From sequence record NC_008720.1: a stretch of DNA of 64,000 nt; one strand, written 5' to 3'. Positions within the stretch are counted from its first letter, which is position 1; each line of letters opens with the position of its first letter. Under the pieces are notes generated by a model, which had not been told where the DNA came from, searched no databases, and worked only from the letters and a program-made list of their open reading frames with translations. Positions 7,622 to 8,046 of this stretch are shown here, piece by piece. The stretch is from Escherichia phage N4. The position numbers and the translations under genes are program-made.

Positions 7622-7645
7622 CCCTCCTTGTGAGGGCTTTTTAGT
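7622..7645 (+). terminator. Rho-independent terminator
   Basis: Stem AGCCCT/AGGGCT, loop CCTTGTG, then TTTTAG. Confidence 0.7.
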
Positions 7646-7667
7646 ATCTATAGGAGAGTAAATAATT

Positions 7668-7982
7668 ATGGCTAATAAGAACCGTCTTCGTGTATGGCAT
7701 ATCCCTCAAGTACCCGGCAAAGCCTTCTATGTTGAAGTAGATTCAGTAGAAGAAGGTGTACGTATCATTGATATACTAGCCAACTATGACCTATTCCAGT
7801 ATGAGAACAATATCAAAGGTGATTACTGCAATGTCTCTGGTTTACAGATGTATGATGAACATATCACTGATGATGAAATGGAAGAGATGGGTCTGACTGA
7901 CCGTTGGGTAGACTGGTACTATGAAGATGACCAGAACTTTTTTGATAACCCGAAAGAGTATTTGAATAATCTCAAGAAGTAA
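7668..7982 (+). CDS. Hypothetical acidic protein (104 aa), single-gene unit
   Basis: ORF track; RBS AGGAGAG upstream; terminators on both sides. Confidence 0.55.
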   Translation: MANKNRLRVWHIPQVPGKAFYVEVDSVEEGVRIIDILANYDLFQYENNIKGDYCNVSGLQMYDEHITDDEMEEMGLTDRWVDWYYEDDQNFFDNPKEYLNNLKK

Positions 7983-8022
7983 TTTCTTGGGGTTAACGAC
8001 CCTTATTAATTCCTTATCCTTT

Positions 8023-8046
8023 GCCCTCCTATGGAGGGCTTTTTTA
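8023..8046 (+). terminator. Rho-independent terminator
   Basis: Stem GCCCTCC/GGAGGGC, loop TAT, then TTTTTT. Confidence 0.75.

Follow-up and report, generated by a model that had tools for sequence, protein, structure and literature searches.

Gene 17 of the temperate phage P22 lies beside cIII and kil in the antitermination-dependent PL operon, with structures composed of a hairpin and a T-run on its flanks. Two papers, citing older P22 genetics, describe its product as required to counteract the exclusion system of the Fels-2 prophage (PMC6486243; PMC9409062), and escape from Fels-2 exclusion is a phenotype described for P22 only. In P22-like phages, terminators made of a hairpin and a U-run stand inside operons, as they do in N4; in phage L, whose record annotates terminators on either side of its gene 17 homologue, such intra-operon terminators have been proposed to lower the amount of downstream mRNA or to stop transcription that is not antiterminated (PMC8022706). 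Here we compare with these loci a small gene of Escherichia phage N4, analysed within a window of 64,000 nucleotides (the whole stretch of DNA studied, one strand; NC_008720.1). A further point of reference is the moron of Juhala and Hendrix, which in its classical form in lambdoid phages brings along both a promoter and a terminator.

The open reading frame of interest is, on the annotation of phage vB_Eco_Jura, N4 gene 18 (YP_950496). As in P22, hairpin and T-run structures stand on the flanks of the gene. N4 itself differs from P22 in being strictly virulent, in having its own RNA polymerases and in carrying the gene after a head-decoration gene, and it differs from the P22-like phages in being transcribed here by a T7-like polymerase of two subunits. 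Like the lambdoid morons, gene 18 is a small accessory gene that is present or absent between the same backbone features, with a terminator at its 3' side, and as with morons its benefit probably lies in conflicts of the phage with its host or with other phages. Unlike morons, it has no detected promoter, the element that it carries is a terminator in front, the terminator at its 3' side belongs to the backbone, and its composition is unremarkable. Our preferred reading, to which we assign a probability of about 0.6, is that gp18 serves in counter-defence as a protein of the P22 gene 17 type, borne on an optional cassette of ~385 bp and expressed by hairpin-gated read-through. Gene 18 and its family are already annotated and are known in that sense, so that the value of the comparison is mainly corrective, with respect to the family label; the new points are modest and comprise the exact boundaries of the cassette, a terminator-first packaging also found in P22-like and lambdoid phages, and the fact that the family name misleads.

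The gene 18 product and the P22 gene 17 family

The features discussed are collected in Table 1. A 4-kb query from N4 was 98.8% identical to the Enquatrovirus phages PMBT57, Jura and AlfredRasser, and one IMG/VR contig was 100% identical to N4, with gene 18 at the same coordinate; the window accordingly starts at the left end of N4.

Table 1. Positions of gene 18, its flanking signals, its neighbours and related sites in the N4 window.
Feature	Position	Strand	Details
gp17, Hoc-like Ig-domain head decoration protein	6726-7598	+	PHROG 2973, 5.3e-95
5' hairpin AGCCCTC-CTTGT-GAGGGCT + TTTTA	7620-7638 (element to 7642)	+	7-bp stem, 5-nt loop
Gene 18 leader	7643-7667	+	TATCTA (7645-7650), AGGAG (7652-7656), A-rich spacer
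Gene 18 ribosome-binding site AGGAG (Shine-Dalgarno)	7652-7656	+	11 nt 5' of ATG
Gene 18 open reading frame	7668-7982	+	ATG start, 104 aa
Short, weak hairpin GGGGTTAACGACCCT with the conserved form GGGTT...AACCC	7989-8003	+	just 5' of backbone terminator
3' hairpin GCCCTCC-TAT-GGAGGGC + TTTTTT	8023-8039 (element to 8045)	+	7-bp stem, 3-nt loop, T6
gp19, 68-aa two-TM membrane protein	8057-8263	+	hydropathy; PHROG match
gp20, SPFH/Band 7 lipoprotein	8256-9092	+	Pfam Band_7 1.2e-23; PHROG match
Strong terminators, N4	493, 1079, 2522, 6680, 7620, 8023, 9099, 13109, 14830	+
TATCTA sites, N4	541-546, 1114-1119, 7645-7650, 9134-9139		TATCTT variant at 2574-2579

The gene 18 product matches the Pfam profile PF17420 ("GP17, superinfection exclusion gene product 17"; InterPro IPR020285) over profile positions 1-98 of 98 with E=1.5e-56 and 189 bits, against a cut-off of 25, and PHROG 1510 with E=1.8e-51. 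P22 gp17 is of the same family across its whole length, and a tblastn comparison places the two proteins, of 103-104 aa, at 63.6% identity (E=2e-36), with the motifs RVWHxPQVP, YDxFQ, NNxKxDY and DRWxD in common. An alignment of seven sequences, drawn from N4-like, P22-like, Stx and Ackermannviridae members, contains 33 invariant columns, and P13, F20, L37 and W80 are invariant across 61 family sequences. Judged by these comparisons, gp18 belongs to the P22 gene 17 family over its full length and at orthologue grade. The family spans 326 phage records from P22-like, Stx/lambdoid, Ackermannviridae, some N4-like, Bacillus, Nocardia and Gordonia phages, the Ackermannviridae carriers including Cba120, PhaxI and many phages of Salmonella and Klebsiella.

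The protein is acidic (pI 4.32, with 22 D+E against 10 K+R) and rich in aromatic residues, with 3 W, 8 Y and 4 F. A hydropathy scan found no transmembrane segment (maximum 19-aa value 0.75, GRAVY -0.80), and the AlphaFold2 model, at pLDDT 93, describes a compact, soluble alpha+beta domain for which Foldseek matched no informative known fold. A resemblance to the ERH (enhancer of rudimentary homologue) fold was considered and set aside, as the Foldseek match (E=0.2, 9-14% identity) falls below support for homology; on the model, the likeness is one of shape only.

It is most likely, by homology to P22 gp17, that gp18 functions as a counter-defence (anti-exclusion) protein, and gene 18 is best read in this way because P22 gp17 is described as counteracting Fels-2 exclusion. 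The label "superinfection exclusion protein", which records of the family often carry in databases, is therefore misleading, pointing in the wrong direction for a gene reported to defeat exclusion. In the mechanism that we envisage, this small, soluble, acidic alpha+beta protein would be produced early or midway through infection and would neutralise an exclusion function encoded by the host or by a prophage, as P22 gp17 reportedly does against Fels-2. It would more probably do so by binding the excluding factor than as an enzyme. Given that the host of N4 is E. coli and not Salmonella, the target of gp18 would have to be a related system. The literature that we searched yielded nothing specific on experimental work with N4 gp18 or on gp17 as an anti-defence gene. 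If gp18 does act in counter-defence, then N4 and the Kuttervirus and Gamaleyavirus carriers that are therapeutic candidates may owe to it part of their host range on lysogens, and its target, probably a function of a P2/Fels-2-type prophage, would be worth identifying.

Flanking hairpins and the optional cassette

Both sites that flank gene 18 have the features of predicted intrinsic terminators, namely a G+C-rich stem, a loop of 3-8 nt and a U-run directly after it on the transcribed strand. Folded as RNA and compared with dinucleotide shuffles, the 5' hairpin reaches -11.7 kcal/mol (z = -4.0, with 0 of 200 shuffles folding equally well) and the 3' hairpin -13.6 kcal/mol (z = -3.7). Terminator-like sites number 10 within 5000-11000, as against 3.2 +/- 1.4 in shuffled sequence. 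Terminators are annotated at both hairpins in the vB_Eco_Jura record (98.8% identical), and both hairpins are kept in related genera. T7-type polymerases terminate at signals consisting of a hairpin and a U-run; in the literature searched we found no transcript-end data or transcriptomes specific to N4. The descriptive part of an earlier note on this DNA, which had recognised an acidic, Trp/Tyr-rich protein of 104 aa with its own ribosome-binding site and terminators immediately before and after it, is upheld by the composition count, by the AGGAG upstream of the start codon and by the hairpins and T-runs on both sides. The two terminators are also similar to one another, such that 7621-7642 and 8023-8044 form a direct repeat of 22 nt with 19/22 identity and a spacing of 402 bp. 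Such a repeat could favour the recombinational loss of gene 18; alternatively, it could stem from gene conversion.

Comparison of related phages indicates how this arrangement is built. Within Gamaleyavirus the gene 18 cassette is cleanly present or absent between the same two flanking features, and alignment of occupied sites (N4, Moo19, PGN829.1 and locus L014) with empty ones (PhAPEC5 and phi G17) delimits a discrete indel of ~385 bp. The cassette contains the 5' hairpin, the ribosome-binding site and the open reading frame, inserted just after the stop codon of the Hoc-like gene. At empty sites this stop codon is followed by TTATTTGGGGTTATAAACCC... and then by the terminator GACCTCCC...GGGAGGTC, and at occupied sites CTTTATTTGG(G)TTA is duplicated, with one copy on each side of the insert. 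In the alignment, the N4 3' terminator falls on GACCTCCC...GGGAGGTC, the terminator that in the cassette-less phages comes immediately after the Hoc-like gene; by its position it is part of the backbone, belonging to the decoration-gene unit, and not of the cassette. The small GGGTT...AACCC hairpin lies 3' of the gene in Moo19 and PGN829.1 and directly after the Hoc-like stop codon in PhAPEC5 and phi G17 (L091), where the site is empty; on locus L005 it spans 7752-7765. It is a further backbone feature, common to occupied and empty sites across N4, Moo19 and Gamaleyavirus. Gene 18 therefore has a terminator on each side because a hairpin-first cassette sits right before a resident terminator, and its terminator-bracketed appearance does not speak for an autonomous unit. 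Sites that are either cleanly occupied or cleanly empty also amount to a ready natural experiment.

The distribution of the gene is patchy. The large subunit of the N4-type RNA polymerase II (RNAPII) occurs in 452 phage records, led by phages of Pseudomonas (101) and Vibrio (92), and gene 18 is missing from most phages with this polymerase; no Pseudomonas, Vibrio, Achromobacter or Rhizobium phage appeared among the organisms tallied for hits to the gp18 family. All 14 Enquatrovirus records contain the gene, as do about 10-11 different phages of Gamaleyavirus and Moovirus; PhAPEC5 and phi G17, both of Gamaleyavirus, lack it, and so does Kaypoctavirus KP8. Where it is present, N4 gp18 is 60-61% identical in amino acids to the Moo19 and Gamaleyavirus copies, a divergence similar to that of RNAPII (66-69%), which fits long residence with occasional loss. 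Likewise, the GC content of gene 18 (38.7%) is typical of N4, standing at the 17th percentile of 315-nt windows across the genome (40.7 +/- 2.7%), and so speaks for long residence rather than recent acquisition. In its pattern of occurrence gene 18 behaves like a horizontally mobile, dispensable-looking add-on. The earlier note had called the organisation moron-like, and part of that description stands, in that the gene is an optional indel of patchy distribution. Of the four moron traits that we set, gene 18 lacks two, a 3' terminator of its own and a deviant base composition; as to a promoter of its own, the scan described below returned no sigma-70-like site, and TATCTA in the leader is a lead only. 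Universal conservation at this position, which the earlier note had named as counting against its proposal, is not seen, since comparative genomics found empty sites.

The 5' hairpin accompanies the gene more closely than its surroundings do. Between N4 and Moo19 or PGN829.1, the element from the hairpin to the ATG is 85-88% identical and the hairpin itself 19/19, as against 68% for the open reading frame, 65-70% for the end of the Hoc-like gene and 52-59% for the other flanks. Across the wider family, a hairpin with a T-run was found within 100 nt upstream at 32 of 42 distinct loci, compared with 38 of 538 other ORFs at the same loci, a count that is descriptive and not a probability because the loci are phylogenetically related. 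In Stx/lambdoid phages, P22 and phage L, the hairpin and T-run stand 12-30 nt before the start codon. The stems vary in a compensatory manner (GCCCTC/GAGGGC, GCCGCTC/GGGCGGC, GCCCCT/AGGGGC), with folds of -12 to -15 kcal/mol. The hairpin is not obligatory for the family, as Ackermannviridae and several metagenomic phages carry the gene without it, overlapping its neighbours in a tight operon.

One lambdoid hairpin, GCCCTCCTATGTGAGGGC, differs from the N4-like form, GCCCTCCT-TGTGAGGGC, by a single inserted base. This likeness is not proof of homology because other N4 terminators, unrelated ones at 8023 and 34497, have stems of the GCCCTC type as well. It is tempting to suppose that a "terminator-first" cassette moves between temperate lambdoid and virulent N4-like phages, that the hairpin transferred with it gates or insulates a counter-defence gene and that the likeness of the hairpins reflects common descent, but we regard this broader proposal, together with its speculative extension to a gp18-gp19-gp20 trio, as rather doubtful.

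Expression of gene 18 and competing readings

The element that travels with gene 18 is a terminator in front of it, which argues for expression by read-through or antitermination and not by autonomous transcription. We propose for the 5' hairpin the role of a terminator or attenuator that would shield gene 18 from upstream transcription. Expression would then arise from transcripts that read through the hairpin, in lambdoid phages those antiterminated from PL and in N4 the middle transcripts of RNAPII. Control of the gene would thus be a matter of gating and not of an autonomous unit running from promoter to terminator. N4 is not known to have an N- or Q-type antiterminator, and this, along with its T7-like polymerase, implies that the logic of the gate must differ from that in P22-like phages. 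The middle transcripts of N4 are described as overlapping and as starting at numerous minimal promoters in the genome's left half, which are AT-rich and extend from -7 to +2 (PMC4496689).

The space available for a promoter in front of gene 18 is small, with only 29 nt between the 5' hairpin and the ATG, and a promoter scan of 7639-7667 returned no sigma-70-like promoter. The independently regulated expression put forward in the earlier note finds no support here: there is no sigma-70-like site, the 3' terminator is the backbone's and the gene has a terminator placed in front of it. The leader does contain a block, GTAT(C/T)TATAGGAGAGTAAA, that is conserved across three genera, and it includes the hexamer TATCTA, which occurs within 40 nt after 4 of the 11 strong plus-strand terminators of N4, where 0.12 would be expected, and also 3' of two terminators in Moo19 (L004, 3985-3990 and 4400-4405). 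The hexamer is often seen as AACTATCTA, and AACTATCT occurs on the plus strand only, with 3 of its 5 copies intergenic. We regard the TATCTA motif as a candidate phage promoter or processing element; if it serves as a promoter in the phage, gene 18 would be an autonomous unit.

Sigma-70-like matches are depleted across N4 relative to dinucleotide shuffles. Three 20-kb scans of both strands, covering 1-60000, gave 31 matches against 57.2 +/- 6.9, 15 against 44.8 +/- 6.7 and 17 against 45.5 +/- 7.6, and N4 appears to avoid sequences that resemble host promoters. The best match within 5000-11000, TTGATA-17-AATAAT (10/12), lies at 7942-7970 inside the 3' end of gene 18. Since such sites are depleted and the terminator at 8023 stands just downstream, this match is probably due to chance.

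Three other readings of the locus must be weighed against counter-defence with gated read-through. The one that we take most seriously, while still holding it unlikely, is that gene 18 is after all an autonomous single-gene unit, served by a promoter for N4 RNAPII (or for host RNA polymerase late in infection) in the 29-nt spacer, where it would overlap both the T-run and TATCTA. The spacer is AT-rich, as are the many minimal promoters of N4 middle transcription (PMC4496689), and both the recurrence of TATCTA after terminators and the retention of the leader block in three genera are what such a promoter might leave behind. However, the conserved block mostly coincides with the Shine-Dalgarno region, the motif in Gamaleyavirus reads TATTTA and not TATCTA, no TATCTA follows the terminator that precedes N4 gp19, and the lambdoid copies of the gene lie inside the PL operon without a promoter of their own. 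A very improbable alternative is that the flanking hairpins are themselves promoters, either early promoters of the virion-RNAP type or GC-rich hairpin middle promoters like those of LUZ7. The promoters of the N4 virion RNA polymerase (vRNAP) do consist of a hairpin and a T-run, and the sequence GAAGC-TCC-GCTTC at 559-571, followed by TTTTGG (to 577), a known virion-RNAP early promoter, served as a positive control; a strong terminator, at 493-512, lies 46 nt before this hairpin (559-577). As N4 early promoters resemble terminators in this way, pattern scans can confuse the two classes. The vRNAP promoters have a stem of 5-7 bp and a 3-nt loop of constrained sequence, and neither gene 18 hairpin is of this form, the loop being 5 nt long in the 5' hairpin and variable in the 3' hairpin, which reads TAT in N4 but ATA in the isolate AlfredRasser and so is not constrained in sequence. 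The middle promoters of LUZ7 are GC-rich hairpins ~15 bp upstream of a G start, and a G does stand ~15 nt after the 5' hairpin of gene 18; the middle promoters of N4, however, are unlike those of LUZ7 (PMC9163698). Moreover, a similar hairpin in lambdoid phages is read by host RNA polymerase, for which only termination or attenuation is possible.

The remaining alternative concerns the function of the protein, not its expression. The annotation "superinfection exclusion protein" in many records, taken at face value, would make gp18 a true exclusion factor that guards the N4-infected cell, perhaps together with the membrane proteins gp19 and gp20, and the order of a gp17-like protein, a two-TM protein of ~68 aa and an SPFH lipoprotein does recur in the unrelated Kuttervirus Cba120. 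We consider this quite improbable. The label derives from P22 gene 17, which the two papers describe as counteracting exclusion, not causing it (PMC6486243; PMC9409062), and P22 sieA and sieB are genes separate from gene 17. A protein of the SieA/SieB type is membrane-associated and blocks or aborts a second infection, whereas gp18 is acidic and has neither a transmembrane nor any other hydrophobic segment, and its model is soluble. Furthermore, a terminator divides gene 18 from gp19-gp20 in N4, Gamaleyavirus carries gp18 without gp19 and gp20, and the SPFH neighbour is missing from lambdoid, Taipeivirus and metagenomic loci.

Neighbouring genes and local organisation

The surroundings of gene 18 are organised in a similar way to the gene itself. 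Upstream, after the RNAPII subunit genes gp15 and gp16, gp17 is a lone gene between the terminators at 6680-6705 and 7620-7638; downstream, the gp19-gp20 unit (8057-9092), whose products match PHROG 1130 and PHROG 200, is bounded by the terminators at 8023-8039 and 9099-9121. Bracketing by terminators is therefore a property of this region of N4 and not of gene 18 alone.

The longest open reading frame of gp17 starts at 6726 (MDRHLTYEEIKMPVLK...), while in Moo19, PGN829.1 and PhAPEC5 the homologous frames begin at the position that corresponds to the N4 ATG at 6759 (MP.LKV...). This ATG has its own GAGGA ribosome-binding site, and from the comparison the true start of gp17 is probably 6759. 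Between the upstream terminator and this start, a -10-like hexamer (CATAAT / TATACT) is conserved, which suggests a dedicated and possibly late promoter for this structural gene.

The order of gp17-like, two-TM and SPFH genes found in N4 (7668-9092) and Moo19 recurs in the Ackermannviridae phage Cba120 (L007, 2001-3318), where the last two proteins of the trio have almost no sequence similarity to those of the N4-like group. We considered a conserved gp18-gp19-gp20 module and treat it as a side observation, as the SPFH neighbour is missing at Gamaleyavirus, Taipeivirus, lambdoid and metagenomic loci. In P22 and the Stx phages the gene adjoins cIII. The cIII protein inhibits the FtsH protease, which is likewise modulated by HflK/C, SPFH proteins of the cell.

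In N4, nothing is inserted at the junction (5412-5424) where the genes of the two RNAPII subunits meet. Elsewhere it is occupied by an HNH endonuclease in Jura (L001, 1897-2406), by an endonuclease VII in PGN829.1 (L003, 977-1558) and by a small open reading frame in Moo19 (L004, 1504-1791). The junction looks like an insertion hotspot for homing endonucleases, possibly one with a relation to the splitting of the polymerase into two genes.
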